DNA of 64,000 bases from a virus. The translations under genes were made by a program, and so were the position numbers. Positions 20,231 to 51,718 of this stretch are shown one piece after another (position 1 is the first letter of the stretch; each line of letters opens with the position of its first letter). Where the stretch lies: IMG/VR virus record IMGVR_UViG_3300011429_000004, positions 331-64,330 of that record; one strand, written 5' to 3'. The notes beneath the pieces are model-generated. The model saw nothing but the letters and a program-made list of their open reading frames with translations, was not told the DNA's origin and made no database searches.

Positions 20231-20237
20231 TCAAACC

Positions 20238-22879: not shown

Positions 22880-23059
22880 CGGTTAAGTGGTATGTGTTGC
22901 ATGTAGTACCGAGCAACGGGCGGTTTACACTTCTGCGGTTTTGTATCTTCTTACATTGGCCAGTACTCTCTATACTACGGGAGAATTTTGGTCAATGGTT
23001 AACAACCTCGATCACGAAAACGTGATTGACTTTTGCCTCTCTCTATGCTATAGAGGCAC

Positions 23060-25182: not shown

Positions 25183-25267
25183 GCGCTCATGGCGAAATTG
25201 GTAGACGCAACAGACTTAAAATCTGTCGGGAAATCCCGTGTGGGTTCAAGTCCCGCTGAGCGCACCA
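25183..25267 (+). tRNA. tRNA-Leu (anticodon TAA), with a long variable arm and encoded CCA.
   Basis: GCGCTCATGGCGAAATTGGTAGACGC...anticodon loop CTTAAAA...variable arm CGGGAAATCCCG...GGTTCAAGTCC...GAGCGCACCA. Confidence 0.8.
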
Positions 25268-25763: not shown

Positions 25764-25839
25764 AGCCGCTTAGCTCAATTGGCAGAGCATCTGATTTTGA
25801 GTCAGAGGGTTATAGGTTCAAATCCTATAGCGGTTGCCA
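25764..25839 (+). tRNA. tRNA-Gln (anticodon TTG), with encoded CCA.
   Basis: AGCCGCTTAGCTCAATTGGCAGAGCATCTGATTTTGAGTCAGAGGGTTATAGGTTCAAATCCTATAGCGGTTGCCA. Acceptor and anticodon stems pair. Confidence 0.75.
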
Positions 25840-28801: not shown

Positions 28802-29257
28802 TTGAACATCGAAGAAGAACTAGATGGATTTAAACTATGCTTGAAGTGTCTTGAAGTCAAGGATATAGATGAATTTGGTAAAAATAGATATAAAAAAGAC
28901 GGTAAGCATGTGTATTGTAAATCATGTGTGCTTATTATAGACAAAAACAAAAGAACAATAAATCCAGATAGGCATAGAAAGTACAATAAAAAGCATAGAG
29001 AAAAGTACCCAGAAAAAGAAAGAGCAAGACACATATTTCGTAAGTACAAATTGACTAAAGAACAATATGAGAACCTGCTGAAACAGCAAAATAATTGTTG
29101 TGGAATATGCAGTAAACAATTTAGGAGCACTCCTAACGTAGATCATAACCACATTACAGGTAAAGTTCGTGGACTACTTTGTAATTATTGTAACAGTATG
29201 TTGGGATGGTACGAACTAAACGATGAAAGGAAAATTCAGGCGTGGACTATGAAATAA
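28802..29257 (+). CDS. Endonuclease VII-family (T4 gp49-like) Holliday-junction resolvase / HNH-like nuclease, copy 1.
   Basis: CCGICSKQF...VDHNHITGKVRGLLCNYCNSMLG Endonuclease_7 signature. TTG start in the ORF track. Confidence 0.55.
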   Translation: MNIEEELDGFKLCLKCLEVKDIDEFGKNRYKKDGKHVYCKSCVLIIDKNKRTINPDRHRKYNKKHREKYPEKERARHIFRKYKLTKEQYENLLKQQNNCCGICSKQFRSTPNVDHNHITGKVRGLLCNYCNSMLGWYELNDERKIQAWTMK

Positions 29258-34787: not shown

Positions 34788-34952
34788 ACATTATTAACCT
34801 TTGAGTGCTAGGATGCCCTTCTGCCGAGCGCTGAGCCGCGCTAGGCGAGCCGCAGGGGACCACGCAGGCAGAGAGGGGTTTCCCCACAAGGTCCAAGGCG
34901 GCTTGCCACTCCTTACGCATCCTAGGCCGATCCAGACGCTAGCGGGGCATCC

Positions 34953-35186
34953 ATGGCGACCTACGAGACGATAGACGACCTCAAGGCAGGCATCGATAGG
35001 GTGAGGGAGGAAGGGCGCAAGATCATCTCTCATTTTAACCGTTTAGAAAGAGAGTACAGTGATTGGGAAGAGCGCGTTTTAGAACTTGAAAACGCGATCC
35101 AACAAGCCCAAGAAGACGCAGGACTGACTAAAGAAGAAATAGTGCAACAGATAAACGAACCTGAGTTGAGTTTATTCGATGACTGA
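34953..35186 (+). CDS. Small acidic coiled-coil protein (GC-rich codon usage).
   Basis: 77 aa ORF immediately after a GC-rich structured element. Confidence 0.25.
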   Translation: MATYETIDDLKAGIDRVREEGRKIISHFNRLEREYSDWEERVLELENAIQQAQEDAGLTKEEIVQQINEPELSLFDD

Positions 35187-35496
35187 CGCCCCAAGAGACC
35201 ATTTTCGTATTAGAGAAGTAATAGATTCACCAGAACATACTCAGCAACAAGTGATGTATGTACAGCCTGAAAGAGACATGGCGTCTATTGCAACTATGGC
35301 TTTGTGGGTATTTACTAGCTGGACTATAGTATTTATAAATATAATACTTGGTGTAGTTTGCATTAGAGATATGCTTACTCTAAAATATGAGCCTATGACT
35401 CATTGGTTTATGAGTGCAGTGTTTGTCGCTACAATATTTGGCTTAGTTGCTACTCATACTTGGGTAATAAAGAAAAATAGCCCTGCTAGAGTTTAA
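35179..35496 (+). CDS. Small membrane protein with two TM segments, a holin-like candidate.
   Basis: Two ~20-aa hydrophobic stretches. 105 aa. Last gene of the putative lysis cluster. Confidence 0.3.
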   Translation: MTDAPRDHFRIREVIDSPEHTQQQVMYVQPERDMASIATMALWVFTSWTIVFINIILGVVCIRDMLTLKYEPMTHWFMSAVFVATIFGLVATHTWVIKKNSPARV

Positions 35497-35523
35497 TCTA
35501 ACAAGGCTATTTCTAAGTTGGGG

Positions 35524-36030
35524 TTAGACTACAGTTGGGGTGATTACGATAGAGCTAAGAACCTGCGGCGCAGGGGCGACGTTTACATTCAACGTTGCGC
35601 CAAACTGCTTGCCACCGACCATGGCTGTAACACTAATGGTATCTACGCCATCAGCTACCGGAGTAGCTACGGCCTGAAGGCCATCAGCAGATGCAACAAG
35701 AGTCTCAGTTGCAGGAGTAGTATTAGACCAAATAGGCGGGCTATCCACAACTTGCGGAGTCAGCATCGGGTTGCCGTTCTGGTCCAAAAAGTCAATTACC
35801 ATGTTGATGACATGGCCTAATGATACTTGGGTATCCATGAGTATTCTATCCTTTGCTATTGTAGATACGTAGCCATCTCGGGTTAAGATGGTAAAACGTA
35901 TATACGATGGGAAGCAGTGGTGGTGATGATGATGATGATGATGACGATGGTGTCTATGCTTCTTTCTTCGCTTCATTATCGCAGTATAACACAGAGATAC
36001 TCTTTCGTAAAGCGAGATAATTAATCGCAT
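35524..36030 (-). CDS. Protein with a natural poly-histidine tract (HHRHHHHHHHHH) and a C-terminal bacterial Ig-like (Big_2-type) domain.
   Basis: The His tract is encoded by (GAT)6GACGAT on the + strand at 35925-35948. The C-terminus DGVDTISVTAMVGGKQFGATLNVNV is Big_2-like. Last gene of the sugar operon. Confidence 0.45.
   Translation of the reverse strand: MRLIISLYERVSLCYTAIMKRRKKHRHHRHHHHHHHHHCFPSYIRFTILTRDGYVSTIAKDRILMDTQVSLGHVINMVIDFLDQNGNPMLTPQVVDSPPIWSNTTPATETLVASADGLQAVATPVADGVDTISVTAMVGGKQFGATLNVNVAPAPQVLSSIVITPTVV
35919..35950. repeat. Trinucleotide microsatellite (GAT)n encoding the His tract.
   Basis: gtggtggtgatgatgatgatgatgatgacgatggtg. Confidence 0.7.
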
Positions 36031-36521
36031 GGTGAGTGTGCTCTTGGTAAAACAAACGCTGGGTTAGAGTATTTATATACATACTGTAAGAGTTTATTGT
36101 TTTCATCATAGTCTTGGCCTAAGTACTTAAATCCTTTCATACAAAAGAAAGCCAAGCTCCTAGAATTAAATGCGCCTATGTTAGCTAAGAAATACTCTAC
36201 ATCTGGAGTATCTTCTATTAGCATATTTAGCGCCTTAGAGCCAAATCCTCTCTTTTGGTTGTATCTCTCTATGAATATACCTATTTCGTTGAGCTTAGTT
36301 AGATAAATAGCCCCTACTGGGCCTTTATAATCTATGATATACCATTTTTTATATGGTTTACTCCTCACAAAACTTACGTGCTCGTCGTAAGTCGGCATCT
36401 TCTTATGAGAAATATTCTCCCATGGTTTACGATCCTTAAGAAGGTTATATAAAAACCTCTCGTACATATGACGTTCTGGGGTGGGTGTGTCGTATATACC
36501 AATAAGAGCTAGTTGGGTCAT
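36021..36521 (-). CDS. GNAT-family N-acetyltransferase (PseH-like candidate).
   Basis: GNAT motif A region IGIFIERYNQKRGFGSKALNML. 166 aa. Confidence 0.5.
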   Translation of the reverse strand: MTQLALIGIYDTPTPERHMYERFLYNLLKDRKPWENISHKKMPTYDEHVSFVRSKPYKKWYIIDYKGPVGAIYLTKLNEIGIFIERYNQKRGFGSKALNMLIEDTPDVEYFLANIGAFNSRSLAFFCMKGFKYLGQDYDENNKLLQYVYKYSNPAFVLPRAHSPCD

Positions 36522-36752
36522 TTCGTGCCTCCAGATATTAGAGCAAGTACCTCTTTTAATCTATCGTGATACCCTTGGGCCATTTTTAAACCATGCTCAT
36601 CTCCACCTAGAGCGTCTGGCTCTTCCATCTGTGAATAAAAATCTGTAATGGCTACCCTTAATGACATAGCTTGTCCAAAAGTTAGTTTTATTCCATTGAT
36701 AGTTATATCTGCTTCAGTCCACATGCCGCCGTCAGGATGATTCACCATTAGT

Positions 36753-37376
36753 TCATTTTCTCCGTTTTTCCATGATCCAGAAGGTTACATTATCAAGCAT
36801 GGTGGTCTTTTTCCAACAAAAACCATACCCTATAATTCTTAAGGAATGATTATCAATAAAGTGACTCCCGTAGTCGTCTAACCAAAGAGCGTCTTTTTCG
36901 CCATGGTATAGTTTATTAGTTGTCTCAGGGGCGAAGTACTCTACACACACTATCCATCTCTTGGAAGAATTGTATATATCTCTCATTAGTTGTTTAAGAT
37001 GCGCCGGGTGAGTGTGTATCATTACACCGTAAGTTATAACTAAATCAGCTACCTTTGTCTCTGGCTGCGCTAAGAGCGTTACACTAGGCACGTTCTCTTT
37101 GAGAAGGGTTCTAGCTTTGTCGTTGCACTCTGTAGCAAACAACTCTATTTGTTTCTCTATGCCCATAGAGAGTTTATTTAAAGCAGCTAGGTTTTGCCCT
37201 TGACCTGCACCTATTTCTAAGACGCTCTTGGGAATATCTCCGCACTTTAAATAGATAGATTTAAATACGTTGTCCCAAAAAGATAACCTTAAAGCTACTT
37301 CTTCGTCTGTGAATTTATTTCTGTCTTGGTATAAGTCCCCAAATGGACCTTGCCACAGCTCAACTTGCTTGTTCAT
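36753..37376 (-). CDS. Class I SAM-dependent methyltransferase (pseudaminic-acid-cluster-associated methylase type).
   Basis: SAM-binding motif VLEIGAGQGQN. Overlaps the cytidylyltransferase gene. Confidence 0.5.
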   Translation of the reverse strand: MNKQVELWQGPFGDLYQDRNKFTDEEVALRLSFWDNVFKSIYLKCGDIPKSVLEIGAGQGQNLAALNKLSMGIEKQIELFATECNDKARTLLKENVPSVTLLAQPETKVADLVITYGVMIHTHPAHLKQLMRDIYNSSKRWIVCVEYFAPETTNKLYHGEKDALWLDDYGSHFIDNHSLRIIGYGFCWKKTTMLDNVTFWIMEKRRK

Positions 37377-38067
37377 TTACTTTACCTTGCTCTTTTAGTA
37401 TTTTCTCTAACCTAGATATATCCTCTGGGTAGTCTACACAGTAGTTAAGATGACACATATTTTCTTTTTGTTGTACGTTTGCCCTTTTTATTTCTTTAGT
37501 GCTTTGCATCCAAGGTGTAACATGTTCTTGAAAATAGGGTGCATCAGCCATCTTGTATGCTGCCTCTAGGCAATCCATAGTAAAAGCCTCTACATCTAGC
37601 CCTTTGGGATAAGTACGTTTAGGGAAAATATTAGAAGCATAGTCAAGCTTCCTCCACAAAAGTAATTGTAAGACCTCAGAGCCCACCCTGGGATCAATGA
37701 AAGGACAATCACCTGTAACCCTAACAATATAATCAAACTTGAAAAAACATGCACAATCATAGTATCGTTTGAGCACATTTAATTCATCTCCACAAAAATT
37801 AGATATTCCCATTTTATCAGCATGAGCGATGATGGCTTCGCTATCGGGTGTGTCTGGTACTGCCACTATTGTTTCTGTGTCGTAGTCTTTGTTGGCTCGA
37901 ATATTTCTGGCTCTTTCCAAGACATGCTCTATAACTGGCCTACCAGCTAGGAGCGCCATAGATTTACCAGGGAATCTTACACTGGTCATTCTCGCCTGGA
38001 CTATTACCCCTATCTTTTGTCTAGAGGGCTTCTTTGGTTGTAAGCGAATTATTTGACCTTGAGGCAT
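37360..38067 (-). CDS. Acylneuraminate/pseudaminate cytidylyltransferase (CMP-nonulosonic acid synthetase, PseF/NeuA/SpsF family).
   Basis: N-terminal GVIVQARMTSVRFPGKSMALLAGRPVIEHV matches the IPARxxSxRxPxKxxxxLxGxP cytidylyltransferase signature. Confidence 0.55.
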   Translation of the reverse strand: MPQGQIIRLQPKKPSRQKIGVIVQARMTSVRFPGKSMALLAGRPVIEHVLERARNIRANKDYDTETIVAVPDTPDSEAIIAHADKMGISNFCGDELNVLKRYYDCACFFKFDYIVRVTGDCPFIDPRVGSEVLQLLLWRKLDYASNIFPKRTYPKGLDVEAFTMDCLEAAYKMADAPYFQEHVTPWMQSTKEIKRANVQQKENMCHLNYCVDYPEDISRLEKILKEQGKVNEQAS

Positions 38068-38302
38068 ATTTACTCTCTGTGTATTTTATTTGTTTCTCTA
38101 TTTCGTTTATTAGTTCATTCACAGGAATATCTCTTGTCTTCATTATTCTTTGTATTTCTTTATCTACTTCTCTAGCGTAGTATGGTAAATCTTCTACTTT
38201 AATGTTTATATTATTATCTAAGTAATAGCCAATCCTATTTCTAAAGGAAGTAAATATAATTTCATAAATGCCTGGTTTATAGTATGTATTCCACTTAGGC
38301 AT
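38021..38302 (-). CDS. Hypothetical small protein within the operon.
   Basis: 93 aa ORF between the HisF-like and cytidylyltransferase genes. Confidence 0.25.
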   Translation of the reverse strand: MPKWNTYYKPGIYEIIFTSFRNRIGYYLDNNINIKVEDLPYYAREVDKEIQRIMKTRDIPVNELINEIEKQIKYTESKYASRSNNSLTTKEAL

Positions 38303-39008
38303 GTATCCTCACCGGAACTCTGAATTGACCATGTAACACATCTGCGCACATCTTTGGCGTAATTTCTGTATACAAAAACATACTCCCAGCAGCAACTGCA
38401 CTTGCGCCTGATTTTATTGCAGCGTGCATATGTGCGATGTTGCCGCAACCACCACAGGCTATAAGAGGTACAGATATATCTTTAGATACTTCTTTTATCG
38501 TATCTAAATTATACCCTTTAGTAGTACCGTCTAATTCTCTATCTACTAATAGTATCTCTCCTGCTCCAAGCATCTCCATGGCTGAAGATATAACGGCTGC
38601 ATGGGCTGTGACATTAGGATGTGTCACTACTCCAACTATAGCTTGGCTGCCAAATTTCTCTGCCGCTTCTTTTATTATTTTTGCACCTGACCATATGGCT
38701 ACTTTATCTGCCCCATTAGCGAGGCAAATTTTAATATGCTCCAATGTAGATATGCCACCACCATAACAAATAGGAGCAAAAAGACCGCGAGTAAGTTCCC
38801 TAATTTTTTCACCTCGTGGCTCCCGTCGCTCAGCACTTGCTTCGATATCCAACAAAATAATCTCATCGACGTTGCGCCTTTCCATGACCTTTATGTATTG
38901 ACTCATTGGGCCTAGTTTACGATAAGGTCGCCCAAAAGAAATAGGCTTAATACATTGAAGATCACCATTAAATAATAGAGTGGGTATGATACGGTGCTTA
39001 AGAGTCAT
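38295..39008 (-). CDS. HisF-like imidazole-glycerol-phosphate-synthase cyclase-subunit homolog (WbuZ-like, acetamidino-sugar formation).
   Basis: ICYGGGISTLEHIKICLANGADKVAIWSGAKIIKEAAEKFGSQAIVGVVTH matches the HisF consensus. Confidence 0.65.
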   Translation of the reverse strand: MTLKHRIIPTLLFNGDLQCIKPISFGRPYRKLGPMSQYIKVMERRNVDEIILLDIEASAERREPRGEKIRELTRGLFAPICYGGGISTLEHIKICLANGADKVAIWSGAKIIKEAAEKFGSQAIVGVVTHPNVTAHAAVISSAMEMLGAGEILLVDRELDGTTKGYNLDTIKEVSKDISVPLIACGGCGNIAHMHAAIKSGASAVAAGSMFLYTEITPKMCADVLHGQFRVPVRIHA

Positions 39009-39226
39009 ATAAATTTCTTTTCTGTGTACATTTGTACTCTATCTATAGTATCTTCTACTAATTGCAATATTTCTGCTTTTCCTCTTTTTATACCTTTGTC
39101 TGTAAGTAAAAGATGACAAGCATCAGCTAACATAATTCCTACATTATAACTATTTTCATCGTCGTCGTTTTTATATCCTTTTAGCCTTTCAGGATCGGCT
39201 AATTGAATCATAACATCATCAGGCAT
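39005..39226 (-). CDS. Hypothetical small protein in the operon.
   Basis: 73 aa ORF bridging the HisF-like and amidotransferase genes with 4/8-bp overlaps. Confidence 0.25.
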   Translation of the reverse strand: MPDDVMIQLADPERLKGYKNDDDENSYNVGIMLADACHLLLTDKGIKRGKAEILQLVEDTIDRVQMYTEKKFI

Positions 39227-40352
39227 TTTTTAAGTCCCTCCTAAACATAGCCCTAGGAGGTCTTTTAATATCCCTTGTATCAAATAAATCTTTATTTGCC
39301 CAATGATTACATAATTCCACGAACTCTTCTATACTTACCCCTATTCTATCAAGAACATCTTCCAAGGGCACACCAAGGTAAGTGGAAGGGTATCGGCCAT
39401 CGTACAGTTCCACAATTTCTTTCGCCTCACGTCTTGTAATATTTTTTCTTCTGATGTGATTGGATGCAATATCGGTGCAGCGGCCAAAACCAAACTTGAG
39501 GTACTTAAAGTAATCATGAATACCAGTTTGAAGGTTATCAAGGTTCTCATAGTCATAACCTGTTCCTTCTACAGGGCCGTAGGCTGTTTTAAATCCATTA
39601 TTACATGCTATTTCGGCGTTTGTGGCGCCATCCCAAGGAAAGAACTGCCCTAAGAATACTCCCTTTACAGAGTCTTTCTTTAACTTGGGGTAAGTATAAA
39701 GTAACATATCTTGTTCGGTGGCTATCTTTTGATCTATGATATCTGATACTCTTAGACCGTTCAATCCACCAAATTCTTCTAACCATTTTTGATCCAGAGT
39801 AAATGTTTTTTGCGTCTCTTCATCAGGACCGCCATACTCATTTTGTGGGTTTTCTCCATATATTATAAGCGGAATATCATGCCAAGTAGCAACCCTAAAA
39901 GGAATAGAGAAAATAGTAACATGCTCCGCCCAAGATATATCCCCAATCTCTCTAAGCGTGTACGCATTGATTTTTTTTCTAACTCTTCCATTACATGTGA
40001 CATGGACATGATCTACTCCTAGCTGAGATATATTATCTAGGTTTTTATGGCCTAACTCGCTTACGTGGTCTGTCGTTGCAGTAACAGCAAGAGGGCGCAG
40101 CCCATACTGTAACGCCATTAAAACTTGGTAGTGTGAATCCTTTCCACCGGATACAGGTACAATACAATCGTATTGCTTCTTTTTGGCTTTCGCTTCTTCT
40201 ACTATTTTTGTAAATTCTTTCTGTCTCTTTGCCCAATCTATATCCTCTCGTGCCTCAAAGGCAGTGCAAGCACTGCATACTCCTTGATCGTTAAAAGTAA
40301 GATCAGGTTTTAAGTTATTATATAAGCATTTTTTGCAGTAGGTCAAGATCAT
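39219..40352 (-). CDS. N-acetyl sugar amidotransferase (PseA/WbuX family, PP-loop ATPase).
   Basis: PP-loop CIVPVSGGKDSHYQ. N-terminal Cys cluster CKKC...CSAC. 377 aa. Confidence 0.6.
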   Translation of the reverse strand: MILTYCKKCLYNNLKPDLTFNDQGVCSACTAFEAREDIDWAKRQKEFTKIVEEAKAKKKQYDCIVPVSGGKDSHYQVLMALQYGLRPLAVTATTDHVSELGHKNLDNISQLGVDHVHVTCNGRVRKKINAYTLREIGDISWAEHVTIFSIPFRVATWHDIPLIIYGENPQNEYGGPDEETQKTFTLDQKWLEEFGGLNGLRVSDIIDQKIATEQDMLLYTYPKLKKDSVKGVFLGQFFPWDGATNAEIACNNGFKTAYGPVEGTGYDYENLDNLQTGIHDYFKYLKFGFGRCTDIASNHIRRKNITRREAKEIVELYDGRYPSTYLGVPLEDVLDRIGVSIEEFVELCNHWANKDLFDTRDIKRPPRAMFRRDLKNA

Positions 40353-40813
40353 TTTATATACTCCTCTATGGCGTCTCTGTGTTTCTCATAATGCCCTAGA
40401 GTAGTATTGCATGTAATACATATTAGTCCTCGTACTTTATTTGTATTGTGACAGTGATCTACAAATAATTTAGTTTCTTTTCTACATATTTTACATTTAT
40501 TGTTTTGCTCGTTTGATATTCTATTAAAATCATCCAAAGTGATACCATATGTTCTTTTTAAATGCATGTTCTTAGCGCTGTTTATTACCAATACTGGATT
40601 AGCCTTTCGTCTTTTCTCATAATTTTTTCTGGACTCAATTATAAGTCTATCTCTATGCCTATCATAATATGATTTAGCTACTTTCTTTTTTATATGTGAT
40701 TTTTCTTTTCTATATCTAGCAGCATATTCTTTTCCATGTTTATCGTACCATACCTTATTTCTATTATAAGGTATTGATAGGTCCTCTTCAATCAAATCAA
40801 ATACGTTTTCCAT
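40349..40813 (-). CDS. Endonuclease VII-family nuclease, copy 2, embedded inside the sugar operon.
   Basis: CKICRKETKLFVDHCHNTNKVRGLICITCNTTLG Endonuclease_7 signature. Confidence 0.55.
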   Translation of the reverse strand: MENVFDLIEEDLSIPYNRNKVWYDKHGKEYAARYRKEKSHIKKKVAKSYYDRHRDRLIIESRKNYEKRRKANPVLVINSAKNMHLKRTYGITLDDFNRISNEQNNKCKICRKETKLFVDHCHNTNKVRGLICITCNTTLGHYEKHRDAIEEYIK

Positions 40814-41109
40814 CAGTGTTTTGTCTCTGGATTAGGTTGTTCTGGTTCTTGCGGTTGTGATGTTTCTTCTTTAGGTTTATTTTGTTCTTGAATTTGTTTA
40901 ACTACCCCTCCTAACATTTGTACCGTCTCAAAGAAGTCATTTATAGCCATAGTTATGGATACTCTGGGTATAGCGTTATCTAATTCTGGCACTTCTTCCA
41001 TAAAAGTAATACGTGCGTTTGGCCCCTTGCATATGCAGTGTACTTTATCTACGTGAATAGATTTTATTGCATATGCTGCTTCCATTAATTCTAATCCTTT
41101 TTTATTCAT
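40813..41109 (-). CDS. Hypothetical protein.
   Basis: 98 aa ORF, coupled on both sides by 1-4 bp overlaps. Confidence 0.3.
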   Translation of the reverse strand: MNKKGLELMEAAYAIKSIHVDKVHCICKGPNARITFMEEVPELDNAIPRVSITMAINDFFETVQMLGGVVKQIQEQNKPKEETSQPQEPEQPNPETKH

Positions 41110-42134
41110 TTTAGGTGCTCTTCTTTGAGTGCCGTTCCTGCTTTGATGTCCATACTTGCTTTTCTAGTCAAAATAGATTCATACATACTAGGAGGAAGCC
41201 CGTAGCTAGGACGAATAGAACGTATATTATGCGCAGTAAATTCTTCTCCTTCTGTAATATCTCTAACCACATAGAGTGATCTCCTAAATTGTCTGGAATA
41301 TCCTTCTTCAATTGAGGTTGTCTCAAAACTTGCCTCCGCTGCCCTTCTGCAAGCCTTCACGAAAAACTTGAAGGCGGTTGGAGTAAGTGAGAAAACTGCG
41401 TCCTCAGACGCAGAGTTGCCCGTGTACAAGTGTTTCTCTATCATACAAGCCCCCATGCCGCAAGCGATCTGTGCGGCTAGGAGGCCCTCTGTATGGTCGC
41501 TAAAGCCTATTAACTCATTTGTATTTTCATTTAACCATCTTATACGCCACAAATTAGACTCTTCTAATCTTGTAGGATAAGCGCTAACACAATGAAGAAA
41601 AATAATTTTTCTGTTTTCTATATGTGGTGCTATGTCCCATATTTCATTATCTGTAGACATGCCTGTAGATAATACTATTGGTTTATTTGTTTTAGCTACC
41701 TCTTGTATTAATGGTATATCTACTAATTCAAAACTAGCTATTTTATAAGCGGGGCAGCCTAGTTTTTCTAAGAACTCTATCCCTTGTTTACTAAACACAG
41801 ATGCAAATATAGGTATTTCAATGAAAGAAGCATACTCGAACATTCTCGCAGCTAGCTCATAGTTTGTTTGAGCTTTGGTATATAAGTCATATAGAGTATT
41901 ACCTTTCCAAAGACCATTTTTAATAGCAAAATCTGGGTTATTATAGGTATTATCTATATCTATAGTCATATCCTCTGGTGTATATACTTGTATCTTTACT
42001 GCATCTGCGCCTGCTTCTTTGGCAGCGTTAATTAAATCTTTAGCTTGTTGTAAGTTGCCCTCGTGGTTACAACTAAGCTCAGCCACTATAAATGGGTATT
42101 TATTCTTGCCTATTTCTTTGCCCAAGAAATTCAT
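41106..42134 (-). CDS. Nonulosonic acid synthase (NeuB/PseI/LegI family).
   Basis: IVAELSCNHEGNLQQAKDLINAAKEAGADAVKIQ matches the NeuB N-terminal consensus. 342 aa. Confidence 0.75.
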   Translation of the reverse strand: MNFLGKEIGKNKYPFIVAELSCNHEGNLQQAKDLINAAKEAGADAVKIQVYTPEDMTIDIDNTYNNPDFAIKNGLWKGNTLYDLYTKAQTNYELAARMFEYASFIEIPIFASVFSKQGIEFLEKLGCPAYKIASFELVDIPLIQEVAKTNKPIVLSTGMSTDNEIWDIAPHIENRKIIFLHCVSAYPTRLEESNLWRIRWLNENTNELIGFSDHTEGLLAAQIACGMGACMIEKHLYTGNSASEDAVFSLTPTAFKFFVKACRRAAEASFETTSIEEGYSRQFRRSLYVVRDITEGEEFTAHNIRSIRPSYGLPPSMYESILTRKASMDIKAGTALKEEHLK

Positions 42135-42544
42135 TCAAACCTCAGCATTTCTTTTAGCTGCTCTTTTGCGTTTCTTATCCAATCGTTCTTTTTTCTTTCT
42201 CTCATAGCGCGAGCTATCATTCTTAGTTTATGAGACTCAGATATAGATTTTAATCCAAGTATATTAGGATCAGTAGAAGGCTCTATATAAAAGCTATCTA
42301 GTTCTCTTTGTTGCCACGCATTAAAGTTACCCTCTATAACAGACTGTAATTGGTTTATTCTATTTGAATGCCATAAAGGGTCTACTTTTGGAGAATCTTT
42401 TGCATACCCCGCTACAGTATTTGCCATTGGAATATTTTTACCTAGCTCTTGTGAAGCATCCCTTACTTGCCCTTGTATAATACTAGGACCAGCTACTCCA
42501 GCACCTATCATTGTACCTATTGCATGTCTTCGAGATAGTTTCAT
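42131..42544 (-). CDS. Hypothetical protein in the operon.
   Basis: 137 aa ORF with 4-bp overlaps. Confidence 0.3.
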   Translation of the reverse strand: MKLSRRHAIGTMIGAGVAGPSIIQGQVRDASQELGKNIPMANTVAGYAKDSPKVDPLWHSNRINQLQSVIEGNFNAWQQRELDSFYIEPSTDPNILGLKSISESHKLRMIARAMRERKKNDWIRNAKEQLKEMLRFE

Positions 42545-43221
42545 TTAAAGATGTCCAATTTAGATAGGTCTGGATACTCATCGTTAGGTAAGTCTGGGTT
42601 ATTCTTAGGTAAGTGATGTAATCTCACTAAACCCTCGGCAGCTATCTCTGGAGACATATACATATGCCACCCCAACTCTTTAATATCGTCTTCTTTTGGT
42701 CTTACCCCTTCTGTGCGACCATCAAATCTAGCGCGCCTTGCCCATTTATCAAACTCTTTGTCATTATGTAGAATAGCACCACCCTGTTGAATACCTAGTA
42801 TTTTAGACCAATGAAAAGATACGCAAACATAGCCTTTTTTAGTTAAGTTACCTTTCGCCATACTGATGCACATGTCGCTGGTAAACCTTCTCGCAGCATC
42901 CCATATATTTAATGGTTTTAATTGATATAGCCCACTCCATTCTTCGTCTCTAAATGCTACTTTATATCTTGCATGCATTATTTGCATAGGCACAGATACA
43001 TAAGTATGTTTTGGTATCTCTATTGTATATGGATAATTAGCTCTTACACTATGGTACTCTAAACACAAGAACAGCGCATTAGTACAACTATTAACAACTA
43101 CACAGTACGGTGCCCCTGTATACTCTGCTACAGCATCCTCGAAGTCTTTGACTACAGAGAAAGGGTTTTTCATTTTAACCACCAGTATAAGAGACCTATA
43201 AGTATTCCAGTTATGCACCAA
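42541..43221 (-). CDS. DegT/DnrJ/EryC1-type PLP aminotransferase (PseC-like), unusually short.
   Basis: FEDAVAEYTGA..VVNSCTNAL, DAARRF and SFHWSKILG (PLP-lysine motif). Only 226 aa against ~370 typical. Confidence 0.45.
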   Translation of the reverse strand: MVHNWNTYRSLILVVKMKNPFSVVKDFEDAVAEYTGAPYCVVVNSCTNALFLCLEYHSVRANYPYTIEIPKHTYVSVPMQIMHARYKVAFRDEEWSGLYQLKPLNIWDAARRFTSDMCISMAKGNLTKKGYVCVSFHWSKILGIQQGGAILHNDKEFDKWARRARFDGRTEGVRPKEDDIKELGWHMYMSPEIAAEGLVRLHHLPKNNPDLPNDEYPDLSKLDIFK

Positions 43222-43261
43222 GCAATAATAGCTATGATATCTATTATTTGCTTAGGTATTT

Positions 43262-43540
43262 TCATTTTTTCTTCCTTCTTTTGCGTGGCTTATATTTAAG
43301 AGACTCTTCTAGCTCTTGCTCATATATTTTAAGCTGGCTAGGAAGCACGGACAAAGAAGTAATTAAACCAATCATTTTAGTTGTAATTATTTTGCCTTTA
43401 AAATAGTGCAAAGTGTCTTCTACTGCATCTATGACTATTCTTATTTTTGCTTGGTGTACTCTAGTCTCTTCGCGATCTGCCCTTTTCATGGTATCCTCCA
43501 GCCAGATGATTCTGTTCCCTTGTATATAGTACGCTGTCAT
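43262..43540 (-). CDS. Hypothetical small basic protein.
   Basis: 92 aa ORF. Confidence 0.25.
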   Translation of the reverse strand: MTAYYIQGNRIIWLEDTMKRADREETRVHQAKIRIVIDAVEDTLHYFKGKIITTKMIGLITSLSVLPSQLKIYEQELEESLKYKPRKRRKKK

Positions 43541-44544
43541 AGTACTCCTAGTTTAATTAGTTCTTCTTTGAGCCCTTGCTCACTTAGCATCTTAGTGAAA
43601 GACCCATTAGAAGTAAATGATTTCCCTTGTAGTTCTTGCATATACTCAGCGCCATTGTGTTCATACTGAGGTGGATTAATTATATATGTTTTAGTTGTGG
43701 GGTCATAATCTGTATTTTGTAGCTCCTCTTGTGTTATTATTTCTTCGTGGAGCTTTTCACCTGGACGAATACCTATTACTTCGCACCATTGTTTCTCTGG
43801 TGGATAGTTACCCATCATAACCATGGCGAGGTCTTTAACCCTGAAACTTGGCATGTCAGGAACAAACGTCTCCCCGCCATACATGCGCTCTATGCACTGT
43901 AACACAAAGTTAACGGCCTCGTCTAGGGTTATCCAAAAGCGAGTCATAGAATCGTCAGTTATGGTTAATTGTTTTAGTTCTTTTATTTGTTGCATAAACA
44001 ATGGTATGACACTACCATTGCTATTGGCCACATTACCATAACGAACAACACTAAACTTAGGACCATGGGGTCCTCTAATATTATTTGCAGCATTGAATAT
44101 CTTCTCCGCACATAGTTTAGTTGCGCCGTAGAGATTAATAGGATGCACAGCTTTGTCGGTAGAGAGTGCTATTACTTTCTTCAGTGATAAAATACCGCCA
44201 TAGGATGTAGCTGGAGTAACGCAACAGTCTACTAGGTTCTGCGCACCAAGTACATTAGTTTTAATATACTCAAATGGATTATACTCTGCTGAAGGAACTA
44301 TTTTTAAAGCAGCTGCGTGGACTATTATTTCATAGTCTCTTATAGCTAGTGCCAGTCTTTCTTTGTCTCTTACATCACCAATGAAGAATCTTAGCCTTTC
44401 ATCTTTAAATCTATTCTTCATTTGCTCTTGTTTATGTTCACATCTTGAGTAGATTCCTATCTTCTGATATTTATTGCCACTAAGCAATTTTTCAGTCAAT
44501 GCTTGTCCAAACGAACCTGTGCCACCTGTAATTAAAATATTCAT
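43537..44544 (-). CDS. UDP-GlcNAc 4,6-dehydratase (PseB/FlaA1/CapD family). First gene of the sugar operon.
   Basis: MNILITGGTGSFGQALTEKLL Rossmann motif, YGATKLCAEK catalytic YxxxK. 335 aa. Confidence 0.7.
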   Translation of the reverse strand: MNILITGGTGSFGQALTEKLLSGNKYQKIGIYSRCEHKQEQMKNRFKDERLRFFIGDVRDKERLALAIRDYEIIVHAAALKIVPSAEYNPFEYIKTNVLGAQNLVDCCVTPATSYGGILSLKKVIALSTDKAVHPINLYGATKLCAEKIFNAANNIRGPHGPKFSVVRYGNVANSNGSVIPLFMQQIKELKQLTITDDSMTRFWITLDEAVNFVLQCIERMYGGETFVPDMPSFRVKDLAMVMMGNYPPEKQWCEVIGIRPGEKLHEEIITQEELQNTDYDPTTKTYIINPPQYEHNGAEYMQELQGKSFTSNGSFTKMLSEQGLKEELIKLGVL

Positions 44545-44823: not shown

Positions 44824-45081
44824 TCATTGTGCTAGTATCCCTGTTGGACCAAATTTCTCTAGGTCTTTCTTCTTTTGCTCTTTCTCTACTACTTGTATTA
44901 TTTCACTCATTATCTTAGAATAACTCAAAGCTTTTTCTTTCTTGTCTTGGTCCATTATGCCTAATTGTAGATCACACTGTATTCTTACAGCGCAGCCAAC
45001 ATTAGTTGTGGCGTCTGTCATTAGCGCTTCAAAGAAAGATTTAAAGATTGATTGTATACGTAGTTGCTCTTGGTTTAGCAT
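44824..45081 (-). CDS. Hypothetical small protein.
   Basis: 85 aa ORF. Confidence 0.25.
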   Translation of the reverse strand: MLNQEQLRIQSIFKSFFEALMTDATTNVGCAVRIQCDLQLGIMDQDKKEKALSYSKIMSEIIQVVEKEQKKKDLEKFGPTGILAQ

Positions 45082-45350
45082 TAAATTAATCCATCTATGT
45101 CTTTTGACTCGGGCTTATCGTCAGGGGGGAACCAGTTGGTGCGGAGCACTTGCCCATCGGTCAGGCGCTCTATGCGACAGGCAAGCTCGTAAATGGGCCT
45201 AGAGCGGCCTAGGGCGATCATTCGGATGTGGGATGGGTGGCAGGGCACCTGCCGGGCAAAGGCGCTGTAGGTCGTCTCTGAGGCTTCCAGCCACGCTTGC
45301 AGGGTGAGGCTCATAGGCGCCTTTTTAGGCGATTTTTTATCGTGAGTCAA
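45081..45350 (-). CDS. Cro/YdaS-like helix-turn-helix regulator candidate (GC-rich gene).
   Basis: TQAWLEASETTYSAFARQVPCHPSHIRMIALGRSRP resembles YdaS/Cro-type HTH. About 60% GC, unlike its neighbours. Confidence 0.35.
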   Translation of the reverse strand: MTHDKKSPKKAPMSLTLQAWLEASETTYSAFARQVPCHPSHIRMIALGRSRPIYELACRIERLTDGQVLRTNWFPPDDKPESKDIDGLI

Positions 45351-45418: not shown

Positions 45419-46342
45419 TTACTTTTTTATGCCGGTTTGGTCTACTCCCATGAATGGCACTACATTAGATAACATAGTTGCCGGGAGCTTACCATCCCAT
45501 CTCTCTGCTTTACGCAAGTCTACTAGGTTAGAGTTTTGTGCAAGCGCTTTAGCTTGAGCCTCAATAGCAGCTGCATTTGCTTTACCGTTTAGTTCTATGC
45601 CCTTGGCTTCTGCTTCGCGGTTTAGTAGATAGGCATCGGCTTCACCCTTGGCTTTAACTACTACAGCCTCGGCACGTTTGCGTTCTTGCTCTAGTTCTTG
45701 AGTACGTGTTTCTACGTTAGCCTTTGCTGCGGCTGCGTCTGATACTGCTTTTTTGAATGTAGTGGCGTACTCAAGGTCAGTCAAAAAGAAAGCAGTTACT
45801 TCTAGCCCAAGAGAGCTTGCACCTTCTTTAATGACTGCATAGATAGTATCTCTTACTTTTGCTCTTTGTTCTGCTACGTGTTGGGTGTTAATCTTACCCA
45901 TTTCAGCCTTTAACCTGTCTTCGGCTAGAGCCTGTAAGCGTTCCTTGTAGTCTTGTACGTTCACCCAAATAAACCTGAGACCTTCTTGAGTTTTGGGCAC
46001 ACGATAGAACAAGTCGTATATAATATCTATCTCTTGATTGTCAATAGTATAAGTATTCACTGCTTTCTTGGGACGAATATTTTGTACGTCTGTCCTGATG
46101 AAGTGCACTGAGTTTACAATAGGCATCTTGAAATGTAAACCAGTACCTTCAATAGAAGATATCGCGCCAAAGCGCGTAACAACTGCGTTCTCGTACTCTT
46201 CTACTGTGTAGTAAGTAGAAAAAAACAACACTAGCAATAAACAGCCTACGATAGCTGCTGATATAGTCTTAAACGGCATTGAAGTTTCTCCTTGTGTTGG
46301 TTCGTCGTCTTGTGGATGTGCGTAAGCCCTTTGTCTTGTCAT
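45419..46342 (-). CDS. SPFH / band-7 (prohibitin/HflC-like) membrane protein.
   Basis: N-terminal TM helix, SPFH core (YTVEEYENAVVTRFG...), Ala/Glu-rich coiled-coil tail. Confidence 0.65.
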   Translation of the reverse strand: MTRQRAYAHPQDDEPTQGETSMPFKTISAAIVGCLLLVLFFSTYYTVEEYENAVVTRFGAISSIEGTGLHFKMPIVNSVHFIRTDVQNIRPKKAVNTYTIDNQEIDIIYDLFYRVPKTQEGLRFIWVNVQDYKERLQALAEDRLKAEMGKINTQHVAEQRAKVRDTIYAVIKEGASSLGLEVTAFFLTDLEYATTFKKAVSDAAAAKANVETRTQELEQERKRAEAVVVKAKGEADAYLLNREAEAKGIELNGKANAAAIEAQAKALAQNSNLVDLRKAERWDGKLPATMLSNVVPFMGVDQTGIKK

Positions 46343-49074: not shown

Positions 49075-49911
49075 TTATGCCTCCACCTGCACGTTGCCAT
49101 GTTTCTTTAACATAGTTTTAACCCATGCGATTGGGTCTCGCAGCATTAGTTCATCGCCACCATGACCGCCTTCAATTAAGATATCGTTAACATCACAACC
49201 ACAAATGTCCCGACGATTGCGACAGAAGGGAATAGACGACATTCGCCTATAGTCTGCTTGAGCGTGCACCGTGGTAAACATCAGGCGCCGACAGTACGCG
49301 GGGTTAGTGAGCATGTACACGGCTCGCCCTAGGTCTAAGGGGTGACTGTCAAGCTTCACTATGGCGCCGTACACGCGCGAATTATAGGCCGGATCACCAA
49401 AACTGCAAGCGTAAAGCTCGACAGGGCGCTGCATCCCCAAGGCCATAACTAAGGCCAAGCACGCTACGCCACGATTAATTAACTCCGCGTGCGATAGCGA
49501 AGCGGAGACAGTTGTCTCTATGAACACCTTAAGAGGCGTAGTCTCTACTTGATTTTCTGAGTGTGATCGCACCAACATATCCTCGGGATGCCCCATAAGA
49601 ACAGCTGGAACGTTAGGCACATACCCTTGAATAGATGAAACAATGATAGGTTGCCCTTGAGTAAATACGTGGGCGTCACGCATCTTGTCTATGATTTTTT
49701 CGGCTTGCTCCAAGCCTTTAGTGTCACCATTAATAAGCCTAGACACTGCGGAATTAAAATCCCCACCACTAAATGAGTTGTCTTGCCAGCCTTCACAAGC
49801 GCTAACCATATCCCTAGGAATAGTCTCAAGCCATTGAGCATATGCAGCTGGGTTTTCAAACCTCATTGCATAGTCGTCTTCTATTGGTGACTGTCTTGGG
49901 ATACTAGGCAT
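49075..49911 (-). CDS. Hypothetical protein, a probable partner of the downstream AAA_5 ATPase.
   Basis: 278 aa, moderately GC-rich. Immediately downstream of the ATPase gene on the same strand. Confidence 0.35.
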   Translation of the reverse strand: MPSIPRQSPIEDDYAMRFENPAAYAQWLETIPRDMVSACEGWQDNSFSGGDFNSAVSRLINGDTKGLEQAEKIIDKMRDAHVFTQGQPIIVSSIQGYVPNVPAVLMGHPEDMLVRSHSENQVETTPLKVFIETTVSASLSHAELINRGVACLALVMALGMQRPVELYACSFGDPAYNSRVYGAIVKLDSHPLDLGRAVYMLTNPAYCRRLMFTTVHAQADYRRMSSIPFCRNRRDICGCDVNDILIEGGHGGDELMLRDPIAWVKTMLKKHGNVQVEA

Positions 49912-49954
49912 TTTATGTTCTCCGCTCTAAGCCTGTAGGCTCAACCGCGCATGG

Positions 49955-51718
49955 TTACTTTATCATATTCCATTGCGCATCGCTAAGACCCTGCTTTAGT
50001 GTGGCGTGCTCAACTAGTTCTTGAGATACACCAGCCGCTAAAAGCGCTTCACCATAGATCGACGCCCTAGGAGTGATAGTATAGCCTTGAATAGATGAAT
50101 TTCCGGTTTCTAGCTTACGGCGAACCTGCCTAACTCTAGCAAGCCAAGTCTTGTTGGCACACAGCGCATCCTCTAGAGCCTCGTCTAATGGCCAATGCAG
50201 GAACACAAAACGATTGGTCAAGGCAAAATCTTGCTTGAACCGACCAACGTATTGCACGGTGCCACCCATGCCACAAGTGTTAGCACCGGCTACAATGATG
50301 CACTGATGATGCCTGGGGACCATCTTATCGGGGAATGAGGCTAGGCCGTTAGCTAATGCACCATTTAGCGCAAGCAAAGCATCAGGCATAGAGCCGTCAA
50401 TCTCATCGAACATATAGACGCCACCATGCTCCCATGCTTCCCTAAATGCAGTAGACATAAATTGCCCATTGGCGTTTATGAAGCCTTGCAGCTGGAACGC
50501 TGTTGCGATAGCGCCATTGTAACGGTATTTGTGTTGGCCGGGAAAGAACACCTCGGCAAGCTTCTCTGCGGCTGTAGTCTTGCCCGTACCGGCTGGACCG
50601 TGCAACCATATGTTGCAATGTGCACCTGATCTAAGCTTGGCGCTGGCGAATTGAACCAATGCAGGAAAGCAACGATGCTGCACGCCCATGTTGAGCGGCG
50701 GCAGGTCTACGCGCTTTAGTTCGATGATTGTTGGCGCTTTTAACTGTATTTTAGCTGTTTCCTCATCGATATATTTGCGTAGCGCGCTTCCAACGTTTTC
50801 TACAACTTTAATTAGTTGTTCACCGTTGACATAGTTCTTAGATTGCAACAAAGCATGAGTAACAAACTGTGAAATGTCAAGTTGCATCTTAATGTCGGGC
50901 TGGCCATTAGGCTTAGGTGTCTCAGTTGTACCATTGTTATATTCTACTTTAGTGTCGTCGGGGAGTTCCGGCAGCATATCATCAAATATCTTGGACTCGT
51001 CTTGCCCCAATACTTTATCCTTGTTGCGCGCGCCTTGCGGACGGCCAACTTTATAGCGCGACCGCGCCATATTGTGTGCTTGGTTTAGATCGTTCTCAAG
51101 GAAATACTTTTGCAGATAGGCTGCGAGCGCACCAGCGTTATACTTAAAACGCTCATCAATGTCGAAACGGGAATAGTAAGGCGTGTTTTGGACCTCCCAC
51201 AGACATTGCAGCATCATGCGAAGATGCTTGTAGTTTTGCCCGTATTGCTTGCGAACGTATTCCGAGCCGGTCATTTTATCCCCCGTTGTATCGTCTCGCT
51301 CCGCGCCTGGACGCGACCGCTCGACTGGTGTTGTGCTCTTATTATAGGGCGGGGAGTATTTATAATCAACTAAAGATTGTTTAGTTGTGTTATTTAGTTG
51401 CTCAATCTTAGGTTGCAAAGGTAAAGGTAAAAAGTATAGTTGATTTTTTATGAATTTATCTAAAGCCGCATTAAATTTTTTGAGTTCATTTTCTGTTGTT
51501 AGTTGTGTATAAATCTCTTGGGCTAAGATAGGATTCTTATTTTGTGTTATTATATCATCTTTAATTAATGGTTGCTCGCTCGGTGGCGCAGGACCATTGT
51601 ATATAGTATCTCTTTGGTTTGTTGATTGTGGTGGCGACGCAAATCGTGTGCGATACTCGCAGCAAAACGCGCAATCGCAGTCTGATCTGTAATCAGATGG
51701 GCCGTCATAGGTTGACAT
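49955..51718 (-). CDS. AAA+ ATPase of the AAA_5 (MoxR/CbbQ/McrB-like) type with a long N-terminal extension bearing a Cys cluster.
   Basis: Walker A HGPAGTGKTT, Walker B VYMFDEIDG, then ALLALNGAL. N-terminal CDCAFCCEY. Codon composition shifts within the gene. Confidence 0.55.
   Translation of the reverse strand: MSTYDGPSDYRSDCDCAFCCEYRTRFASPPQSTNQRDTIYNGPAPPSEQPLIKDDIITQNKNPILAQEIYTQLTTENELKKFNAALDKFIKNQLYFLPLPLQPKIEQLNNTTKQSLVDYKYSPPYNKSTTPVERSRPGAERDDTTGDKMTGSEYVRKQYGQNYKHLRMMLQCLWEVQNTPYYSRFDIDERFKYNAGALAAYLQKYFLENDLNQAHNMARSRYKVGRPQGARNKDKVLGQDESKIFDDMLPELPDDTKVEYNNGTTETPKPNGQPDIKMQLDISQFVTHALLQSKNYVNGEQLIKVVENVGSALRKYIDEETAKIQLKAPTIIELKRVDLPPLNMGVQHRCFPALVQFASAKLRSGAHCNIWLHGPAGTGKTTAAEKLAEVFFPGQHKYRYNGAIATAFQLQGFINANGQFMSTAFREAWEHGGVYMFDEIDGSMPDALLALNGALANGLASFPDKMVPRHHQCIIVAGANTCGMGGTVQYVGRFKQDFALTNRFVFLHWPLDEALEDALCANKTWLARVRQVRRKLETGNSSIQGYTITPRASIYGEALLAAGVSQELVEHATLKQGLSDAQWNMIK

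Follow-up and report, generated by a model that had tools for sequence, protein, structure and literature searches.

We describe here a 64,000-nt stretch of viral DNA, hereafter the window, that corresponds to positions 331 to 64,330 of IMG/VR record IMGVR_UViG_3300011429_000004, and within it an eight-enzyme operon of the pseudaminic acid (Pse) type that occupies 36021-44544 on the minus strand, together with two genes for short Maf-type transferases that lie among the head genes of the same phage. The open reading frames (ORFs) of the operon are present on the minus strand at the coordinates given in a preliminary description of this DNA, which was made from the sequence alone, and the enzyme families that it had proposed for the eight genes were borne out by profile searches of the Pfam and NCBIfam libraries at their curated cut-offs. 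Pfam scans covered all window ORFs of at least 75 aa, joined into pseudo-proteins, and the operon ORFs were also searched singly. From right to left, the predicted enzymes are as follows.

43537-44544 (-), PseB-like uridine diphosphate N-acetylglucosamine (UDP-GlcNAc) 4,6-dehydratase (inverting), step 1; TIGR03589, 390.1 bits, cut-off 407.75
42541-43176 (-), mini-DegT, pyridoxal phosphate (PLP)-dependent sugar aminotransferase in the PseC role, step 2; Pfam DegT, 64 bits, cut-off 19.8
41106-42134 (-), PseI pseudaminic acid synthase, condensation with phosphoenolpyruvate (PEP); TIGR03586, 374.9 bits, cut-off 340.25
39219-40352 (-), WbuX/PseA-type PP-loop N-acetyl-sugar amidotransferase (acetamido to acetamidino); TIGR03573, 317.8 bits, cut-off 203.2
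38295-39008 (-), HisF-like WbuZ/AglZ-type ammonia-channel subunit; NF038364, 171 bits, TIGR03572, 168 bits, His_biosynth, 119 bits
37360-38067 (-), cytidine monophosphate (CMP)-sugar cytidylyltransferase in the PseF role; CTP_transf_3, 88 bits, cut-off 22.6
36753-37376 (-), pseudaminic-acid-associated S-adenosylmethionine methyltransferase; TIGR03587, 126.9 bits, cut-off 112.05, full-length
36021-36521 (-), GNAT N-acetyltransferase, candidate for the PseH role; orthologues match Acetyltransf_3

That a Pse-type biosynthesis operon is carried by a phage is supported by the profile cut-offs passed (PseI, the WbuX-type enzyme and the methylase) and by the phage genome context. The synthase is PseI-type, as it scores above the curated cut-off of that family, with NeuB and SAF domains in Pfam and only 227.7 bits against the NeuB equivalog TIGR03569 (cut-off 399.65); DAHP-synthase models match weakly, and the alternative of a KDO/DAHP-type enzyme was not borne out. 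The PP-loop enzyme, whose translation shows the SGGKDS motif, and the methylase likewise exceed the curated cut-offs of Pse or acetamidino families. The dehydratase falls 17 bits under the TIGR03589 cut-off, yet its match is full-length and far ahead of all alternatives (FnlA 231, LegB 56 bits), with 309 bits for Polysacc_synt_2 and 61-63% identity to orthologues in divergent contigs by blastp, so that it is PseB-like, as had been suggested, and not a generic epimerase or a LegB. The best PDB match of the cytidylyltransferase is the cytidylyltransferase 6OEW (6e-28), and the NCBIfam matches listed for it are all KdsB-type and far under cut-off. The HisF-like protein scores below the cut-offs (300-310) of NF038364 and TIGR03572. 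For the GNAT, the window sequence itself gives weak support, its sole NCBIfam match at E <= 0.01 being ArsN1 (19 bits) and no match being found to the dedicated PseH N-acetyltransferase model in NCBIfam; a profile of three orthologues matches GNAT structures (3EO4, 2.5e-7), and the acetyltransferase family phrog_1249 is matched at 9e-5.

The aminotransferase, placed at 42541-43221 in the preliminary description, does belong to the DegT_DnrJ_EryC1 family; it is not a full-length PseC, and its start is most likely the ATG at 43176 (211 aa), which gene callers and homologue alignments both support. Against the PseC equivalog TIGR03588, a family of two domains and ~375 aa, it reaches 39 bits with a cut-off of 423.5 and is thus no canonical PseC, consisting of the large PLP domain only, with the C-terminal domain absent. 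An AF2 model built on 34 homologues has a pLDDT of 93.5, and its top Foldseek matches are perosamine synthase, PseC (2FN6/2FNU) and PglE (TMq 0.62-0.68, TMt 0.37-0.40), on ~40% of which, the large PLP-binding domain, it superposes. K125, D93, T58-Y59 and N29-S30-C31-T32, which correspond to the Schiff-base lysine, the pyridine-binding aspartate and the phosphate and stacking motifs, are invariant across the 34 homologues, and the Schiff-base lysine aligns with that of PseC (SFHWSK vs SFHAIK). We found 3,479 metagenomic homologues, the best 120 of which are all 195-241 aa long and 56-98% identical (mostly 60-73%); those in IMG/VR contigs are 44-66% identical, and the closest relative in 185,579 GTDB species-representative genomes, found in metagenome-assembled genomes, is 37% identical. 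Since it is so conserved, mini-DegT would appear to be a functional, virus-adapted one-domain enzyme. A conserved ~110-aa ORF (A5) overlaps the mini-DegT stop in 36 other viral loci (e.g. L065 10657-11004); the idea that it is the detached aminotransferase C-terminal domain was unsupported, with no PDB or Pfam match.

The preliminary description missed two Maf-type transferases in the head module, which would give the sugar a destination. The genes of this module that concern us are the following.

793-1824 (+), major capsid protein, possible glycosylation acceptor; phrog_9953 major head protein, 1.3e-105
1846-2448 (+), w200, 200-aa lineage-specific protein, candidate acceptor; immediately upstream of Maf1, 17% Ser+Thr
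2489-3397 (+), mini-Maf 1 (Maf1), putative CMP-nonulosonic-acid-dependent protein glycosyltransferase; PF01973 MptE-like, central domain of 5MU5
3394-4224 (+), w276, 276-aa head-module protein between the Mafs; phrog_20268, homologue in the Maf-less phage ppBjS10J-1
4211-5131 (+), mini-Maf 2 (Maf2), paralogue of Maf1 (34% identity); PF01973
5058-5462 (+), w134, 134-aa protein, candidate Maf2 acceptor; just after Maf2, 18% Ser+Thr, 30% Ala+Gly

Maf1 and Maf2 jointly match PF01973 (MptE-like/DUF115) at 163 bits, and both match the NCBIfam model FlagModPseD, built for flagellin modification by Campylobacter jejuni PseD (Maf1 at 5e-11). PseD is the Campylobacter Maf implicated in placing acetamidino-pseudaminic acid on flagellin. 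With 302 and 306 aa, the phage proteins align only to residues ~257-440 of the 666-aa Magnetospirillum Maf (5MU5_A), and they lack the three-domain architecture of ~600-700 aa, the N- and C-terminal domains both being absent. An AF2 model of Maf2 (pLDDT 89) has 5MU5 as its best Foldseek match (1.2e-10), followed by an archaeal MptE/HPPK kinase (8SD5) and then by the GT29/GT42 sialyltransferases, which use CMP-sialic acids.

The order major capsid protein, w200, Maf1, w276, Maf2, w134, adaptor and a 560-aa protein (p560) is kept in related contigs and in ~26 IMG/VR loci, where w200 again adjoins Maf1, and the capsid protein is 84-90% identical across the lineage; some relatives have one Maf only. 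The presence of w134 follows that of Maf2: all 12 loci with Maf2 have it, as against 2 of the 14 that lack Maf2, counts that ignore shared ancestry. The nearest cultured relative, Bradyrhizobium phage ppBjS10J-1 (capsid protein 53% identical), keeps the capsid protein, a w276 homologue, the adaptor and p560 and has no Maf1, Maf2, w200 or w134, with no blastp match to Maf1 in its head region; w200 has no family match either. Furthermore, all six Maf-bearing IMG/VR contigs of at least 60 kb also carry mini-DegT, and by blastp five of these loci hold all other cassette enzymes, the sixth (L023) lacking only a PseI match of full length. Contigs of equal size recur in the Maf, PseI and mini-DegT match lists, and ENA contig ERZ27267903 k141_503459 was directly shown to hold both the Maf and the cassette loci. 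From the conserved head order, the absence in ppBjS10J-1 and the co-occurrence of Mafs with mini-DegT it follows that the Mafs, the sugar cassette and the two small Ser/Thr-rich proteins act like a single package that is specific to the lineage.

The cassette itself is found well beyond this lineage. The eight enzymes recur in the order PseB, mini-DegT, PseI, WbuX, HisF-like, cytidylyltransferase, methylase and GNAT in divergent phage contigs (PseI 49-58% identical), with all eight in loci L006 and L008 at 38-68% identity, while a third locus, L004, stops after PseI. A two-pattern scan of IMG/VR with a mini-DegT alignment gave 97 viral contigs, and in the 80 loci fetched for blastp with the window proteins we found PseB in 69, PseI, WbuX and the HisF-like protein in 60 each, the methylase and the GNAT in 62 each and a cytidylyltransferase of the window type in 24, with a divergent CTP_transf_3 cytidylyltransferase cluster in 33 further loci. 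At least 60 IMG/VR viral contigs thus carry the cassette, the contigs being up to 94 kb long; its genes come in no fewer than four orders and lie on one strand in every case. An exact-pattern IMG/VR scan with a single PseI sequence gave no match, whereas the alignment-based scans did. Judged from these comparisons, in which the enzymes are conserved while the intervening small ORFs are not, the cassette appears to be under selection; a purifying-selection test with loci L001 and L003 was uninformative, as they are >99% identical to the window, and protein conservation in divergent loci was used instead.

The notion that such a pathway is unusual for a phage holds for cultured and GenBank phages and fails for uncultured viruses, given the number of IMG/VR contigs above. 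A PseI tblastn search of 50,697 GenBank phage records gave three weak matches, one of them a bacterial contig, and Maf2 gave none; neither protein matched ppBjS10J-1 or any cultured phage, and the PHROGs families gave no match to PseI, the cytidylyltransferase, the methylase or either Maf. BFVD holds MptE-like proteins from 'uncultured Caudovirales phage' that are automatically named as pterin kinases, and therefore the fold is already present in viral databases and not yet interpreted. Downstream of the cassette, other viral lineages have two small ORFs rich in Ser, Thr, Ala and Gly and a conserved ~270-aa protein (27 loci; e.g. L036 6708-8470, L088 8034-9779), which may form an analogous set of acceptor and transferase. 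The ~270-aa protein (A4) has a weak Maf-like motif register (KIALIGSAPS / IGLWGVDMA), and its reading as a distant Maf was left as a lead, with 23% in hhalign and no PDB match. No link was found between the small Maf-adjacent proteins of the window and the Ser/Thr-rich ORFs that follow cassettes elsewhere (hhalign <1%).

Two activities of the pathway are missing, as the preliminary description had noted. In window ORFs of at least 75 aa, Pfam gave no match to a PseG-like GT-B UDP-sugar hydrolase, nor to a class-I glutamine amidotransferase or HisH-like glutaminase (WbuY/AglY), and neither enzyme was found among 55 unassigned ORFs of at least 160 aa inside related viral cassettes, which hold only occasional HNH genes, PIG-L deacetylases, a formyltransferase domain, a PhyH dioxygenase and extra methyltransferases. 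Four small operon ORFs (42131-42544, 40813-41109, 39005-39226 and 38021-38302) had been offered as possible stand-ins for PseG and HisH; having no profile match and being unconserved, they are an unlikely source of either function, and we rejected them, the ORFs between mini-DegT and PseI being moreover heterogeneous among loci. In HisF (Thermotoga numbering), R5, E46, K99 and E167 form the ammonia gate at the HisH interface, and D11 and D130 are the cyclase aspartates. Aligned to HisF structures, the phage protein retains all four gate residues and has Leu in place of D11 and Thr in place of D130. Gate residues kept and cyclase aspartates replaced fit an ammonia-channel subunit, and we infer a protein of the WbuZ/AglZ type that would still expect a glutaminase partner, most simply a host HisH.

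The remainder of the window is that of a tailed phage. PHROGs profiles identify portal, DNA polymerase, ribonucleotide reductase, helicase and major head protein genes, and Pfam the terminase; the replication genes comprise a family-A DNA polymerase, ribonucleotide reductase, an SNF2 helicase and a primase-helicase, and lysozyme-like and amidase-like virion proteins are also encoded. Two of these genes lie at the following positions.

57722-59344, terminase
60585-63149, portal

Profile scans of the window ORFs found no integrase or other lysogeny genes, and typical cellular housekeeping or ribosomal families had no match among the ORFs scanned. The same sequence occurs in three independent assemblies, all metagenomic, in an identical arrangement. 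The window begins within a scaffold gene, the N-terminal part of which was not detected at the window end in a check for circularity. A megablast search of the 9-kb operon region against the 50,697 GenBank phage records gave zero matches. The window is essentially the whole genome of a virulent-looking, uncultivated tailed phage.

We propose a model for the assembly and use of the sugar in which enzyme activities, the order of tailoring, the sites that receive the amidino and methyl groups, the nature of the acceptor and the advantage gained by the phage are predictions that build on the family assignments, gene order, conservation and co-occurrence observed here. PseB would carry out the 4,6-dehydration of host UDP-GlcNAc, mini-DegT would add the C4 amine and the GNAT would N-acetylate it. 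The free sugar would then be released by a UDP-sugar hydrolase of non-phage origin, or by an unrecognised protein, allowing PseI to condense it with PEP and the cytidylyltransferase to activate the product with CMP. The WbuX-type amidotransferase would convert one acetamido group to acetamidino, assisted by the HisF-like subunit, which would probably be docked on a host HisH-type glutaminase, and the methylase would add a methyl group. The Mafs, made together with the late head proteins, would transfer the sugar to Ser/Thr of phage structural proteins, for which w200 (1846-2448), w134 (5058-5462) and/or the capsid protein are the best acceptor candidates, so that the outcome would be a virion coated with nonulosonic acid.

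In its core, namely that the leftward operon turns host UDP-GlcNAc into a CMP-activated pseudaminic acid derivative and that the Mafs O-glycosylate virion proteins with it, this model has our moderate confidence, and attachment of the sugar to phage head proteins is probable. We hold more tentatively the fuller reading, in which a widespread, as yet uncultivated group of soil and freshwater phages makes its own acetamidino- or methyl-modified Pse with virus-specific minimal enzymes, among them a one-domain mini-PseC, and attaches it to small head proteins or the capsid via minimal Mafs; the free-sugar route and the ammonia delivery may then operate in the group without a PseG or HisH homologue. 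Several points weigh against the model. Its support is homology and gene neighbourhood. Without PseG and HisH the encoded pathway has gaps, and it may need a host with pseudaminic acid synthesis of its own; the GNAT, the cytidylyltransferase and the HisF-like protein all fall short of the PseH, PseF and WbuZ equivalog cut-offs. The phage Mafs are the central domain only, with ~300 residues as against 632-666 in cellular Mafs, and PF01973 also includes the pyrophosphokinase MptE/HPPK, the second-best fold match. Co-occurrence was counted without regard to shared ancestry, and the head-module position shows co-regulation with late genes and not that the acceptors are in the virion. Finally, GTDB species genomes hold no close mini-DegT relative (best 37%) and hence give no clue to the host.

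The most serious alternative is that the CMP-sugar is placed on the host surface, on flagellin, pili, an S-layer, lipopolysaccharide or capsule, by the phage Mafs or by host transferases, masking receptors from superinfecting phages or stopping progeny from re-adsorbing to debris. We keep it in view, as a less likely reading, because the cellular Mafs, known from the flagellin systems of Campylobacter, Helicobacter, Aeromonas and Magnetospirillum, act on flagellins, and Maf1 matches the PseD flagellin-modification model, and because the absence of PseG and HisH hints that the host has such a pathway of its own. Precedents of two kinds point the same way: in Pacific Ocean viromes, pseI was listed among the auxiliary metabolic genes of viruses and read as 'motility augmentation' (PMC6359870, table), and prophage enzymes epimerise or acetylate Pse in Acinetobacter capsules (PMC12053666). 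Set against this are the location of the Maf genes between capsid and adaptor genes, and not among early or host-takeover genes, the loss of the N- and C-terminal domains that flagellin Mafs have, and the covariation of the Mafs with small phage-specific proteins; classical seroconversion is moreover unlikely in a window in which no integrase or lysogeny genes were found. Flagellin itself is an unlikely acceptor, as the Mafs are reduced to the central domain and sited in the head module.

A purely metabolic role, in which the cassette raises the Pse flux of the host for host fitness and the MptE-like proteins do something unrelated to it, for example catalyse a nucleotide-dependent step of head assembly, of kinase type or otherwise, would accommodate the need for host PseG and HisH, the inclusion of archaeal HPPK in PF01973 as the second-best fold match and the viral lineages that carry the cassette with no recognisable Maf genes within 10 kb. 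We regard it as improbable, since all six long Maf-bearing contigs carry mini-DegT, Maf and PseD head the fold and profile matches, sialyltransferases following directly behind HPPK, and a cassette of 8.5 kb (13% of the genome) plus a further 3% for the Mafs would be a large cost for a generic boost; the Maf-less lineages, furthermore, often have the ~270-aa protein downstream, with the same motif register, though this likeness is weak (hhalign 23%). That a bacterial surface-glycan island was misassembled with, or merely adjoins, phage DNA is highly improbable: the sequence comes from metagenome assemblies only, but phage genes flank the cassette on both sides within one 64-kb contig, the ORFs scanned in it match no typical cellular housekeeping or ribosomal family, three independent assemblies agree, many IMG/VR contigs of 43-94 kb show the same arrangement, and the mini-DegT clade has no close relative in the 185,579 species genomes. 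DNA hypermodification was also considered as a target of the sugar and set aside, as a preprint on glycan-hypermodified phage DNA is silent on nonulosonic acids and nothing in the window supports it.

The proposed virion glycosylation resembles known systems in part. The flagellin Pse system of C. jejuni and Helicobacter pylori (PseB, C, H, G, I, F, PseA, HisH/HisF-like and the Mafs PseD/PseE) shares with the window its enzyme families and the logic of its chemistry, namely a PseB-like dehydratase, DegT aminotransferase, GNAT, PseI, cytidylyltransferase, PseA/WbuX amidotransferase, HisF-like subunit, Pse methylase and Mafs, those of the window matching PseD. It differs in that the window genes are virus-encoded, without a PseG or HisH found and with an aminotransferase that lacks the C-terminal domain, and in that the window Mafs are ~300 aa long and lie in a head-morphogenesis module rather than in a flagellar locus. 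The WbuX/WbuY/WbuZ set of Escherichia coli O145 and AglX/AglY/AglZ of Methanococcus likewise have a WbuX-type amidotransferase beside a HisF-like subunit, whereas the window and the tested ORFs of related cassettes have no glutaminase subunit (WbuY/AglY/HisH).

Pseudaminic acid and other nonulosonic acids are seen as sugars of bacterial and archaeal cell surfaces, and the mycobacteriophages known to glycosylate their virions use conventional glycosyltransferases and host sugar nucleotides. Mycobacteriophage glycosyltransferases (Che8 gp110, Corndog gp38 and those of Myrna) glycosylate the phages' own capsid or other virion proteins according to PMC12363180, which is the same idea as in our best explanation, with phage enzymes modifying their own virion; in contrast to the window, the passage on them there indicates no nucleotide-sugar pathway or nine-carbon acids, and no Maf-type enzymes are involved. 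The VP4 spike of the haloarchaeal virus HRPV-1 carries 5-N-formyl-legionaminic acid, which affects adsorption (PMC6137143), and so shares with our model a nonulosonic acid on a structural protein of a prokaryotic virus. HRPV-1 encodes no pathway gene, its host making and attaching the sugar as an N-glycan, whereas the window virus encodes most of the pathway together with transferases; HRPV-1 is the only prokaryotic virus that we found reported to carry a nonulosonic acid, and this sugar is borrowed from the host. The pseI of PMC6359870 is one protein cluster without genome context, whereas in the window an entire cassette, conserved and accompanied by transferases, is set in a phage genome that is nearly complete. 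A review of the glycan machineries of giant viruses mentions no nonulosonic acids, and a full-text literature search, of incomplete coverage, found no paper on a phage-encoded Pse pathway coupled to Maf-type transferases. The known kinds to which the system relates are bacterial Pse/Maf glycosylation and phage virion glycosylation; it comprises a conserved viral package for a modified Pse, the probable attachment of this sugar to phage head proteins, a novel minimal aminotransferase, minimal Mafs and a consistent lack of PseG and HisH.

If the model is correct, we would have here the first system for protein glycosylation with nonulosonic acids to be encoded by a virus, and the first Mafs with a substrate other than flagellin. 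The virus-encoded pathway and transferases take up ~16% of the 64-kb genome and are conserved over dozens of viral contigs. Phages would then be seen to invest heavily in glycan-coated particles, which would bear on the stability of these and on how they adsorb, aggregate and are recognised. The mechanism of Mafs and the way they recognise acceptors are poorly understood, and Mafs of 300 aa with simple co-encoded candidate substrates would be an attractive biochemical model; a sugar aminotransferase would moreover prove able to work on its PLP domain alone. The genes would also supply compact parts for engineering pseudaminylation, and they warn against reading viral 'pseI' matches as mere auxiliary metabolic genes for host motility.

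Around and between the eight enzymes the transcription unit holds further ORFs and a probable end signal.

45081-45350 (-), 89-aa ORF just upstream of PseB; helix-turn-helix-like by eye
43262-43540 (-), 92-aa ORF; no family match, no homologue in L004, L006 or L008
42131-42544 (-), 137-aa accessory ORF; twin-arginine-like N-terminus MKLSRRHAIG, no family match
40813-41109 (-), 98-aa ORF, unconserved
40349-40813 (-), HNH/Endonuclease VII-type gene; PF02945 (Endonuclease_7), 65 bits
39005-39226 (-), 73-aa ORF, unconserved
38021-38302 (-), 93-aa ORF, unconserved
36518-36748 (-), 76-aa ORF, unconserved
35524-35838 (-), 104-aa accessory ORF, last in the operon; start of the gene callers, AAGGA upstream of ATG 35838
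35473-35514 (-), intrinsic-terminator-like hairpin that closes the leftward transcription unit; 18-bp stem, then a T-run

Neighbouring genes had been described as overlapping by 1-8 bp, which is true of nine junctions; at three others the overlap amounts to 10, 17 and 47 bp, and gaps of 4 and ~40-85 bp separate the genes at two more. None of the small operon ORFs has a Pfam or NCBIfam match, and none is conserved in L004, L006 and L008, barring a weak match of the 137-aa ORF. The latter belongs to a family of 137-149 aa with the N-terminal motif MKL[SN]RR[HK]A[IM] (window 42131-42544, L008 9543-9992, L014 10627-11064; 28-31% identity), the sequence of which suggests an exported protein; its homologues occur in L008 and L014 only, other relatives having unrelated small ORFs at that position. 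The 89-aa ORF upstream of PseB, which also has no Pfam or NCBIfam match, has counterparts of 37-52% identity in the corresponding place in L004, L006 and L008, is found in L012, L014 and L028 as well, and may encode a regulator.

The HNH gene at 40349-40813, which interrupts the operon and was not mentioned in the preliminary description, is present in the contigs of >99% identity and absent in the divergent L004, L006 and L008; therefore it is probably a mobile homing endonuclease inserted into the operon, and active homing endonucleases are suggested. HNH genes are scattered in the genome, with Endonuclease VII-type genes at 28802-29257 (+) and 40349-40813 (-) and an HNH_3 gene at 25238-25762 (+).

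At the far end of the operon, the last ORF had been read as a poly-His, Ig-like protein. Of this, the Ig-like domain finds no support, as zero Pfam families match at E <= 0.1, and the poly-His run, 12 His codons in 14 at 35925-35966 (-), lies in frame with the ORF inside the 180-nt interval between the GNAT stop and ATG 35838; gene callers start the protein at this ATG, behind AAGGA, which probably leaves the run outside. The run is probably untranslated or a leader, a 168-aa reading that includes it is doubtful, and a promoter-like site lies near it at 36011-35983. The 104-aa ORF is missing from L006 and L008.

A few other features of the window deserve mention. A GC-rich island of ~320 nt at 19920-20240 (+), directly 5' of the ribonucleotide reductase gene, the likely true start of which is an ATG near 20238, folds into several stems with very high stability (-141.9 kcal/mol, z = -5.6 with 100 shuffles) and has no Rfam family match; it may be a structured leader or an RNA element of a new type. 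A second GC-rich island at 34788-34960 (+), in the space that separates the rightward gene block from the leftward block converging on it, has an unexceptional fold (z = -1.5) and no Rfam match. Three tRNA genes are present.

22805-22880 (-), tRNA-Thr (TGT)
25183-25267 (+), tRNA-Leu (TAA)
25764-25839 (+), tRNA-Gln (TTG)

A second GNAT-like acyltransferase is encoded at 8477-8911 (+) in the structural module (phrog_4470, 3e-14) and is kept in relatives, the Maf-less Bradyrhizobium phage having a GNAT at the equivalent position. Just upstream of the sugar operon lies an SPFH/Band-7 protein gene at 45419-46342 (-), and the same leftward block includes genes for a CobS-like AAA ATPase and a DUF7192 protein within 49075-51718 (-).

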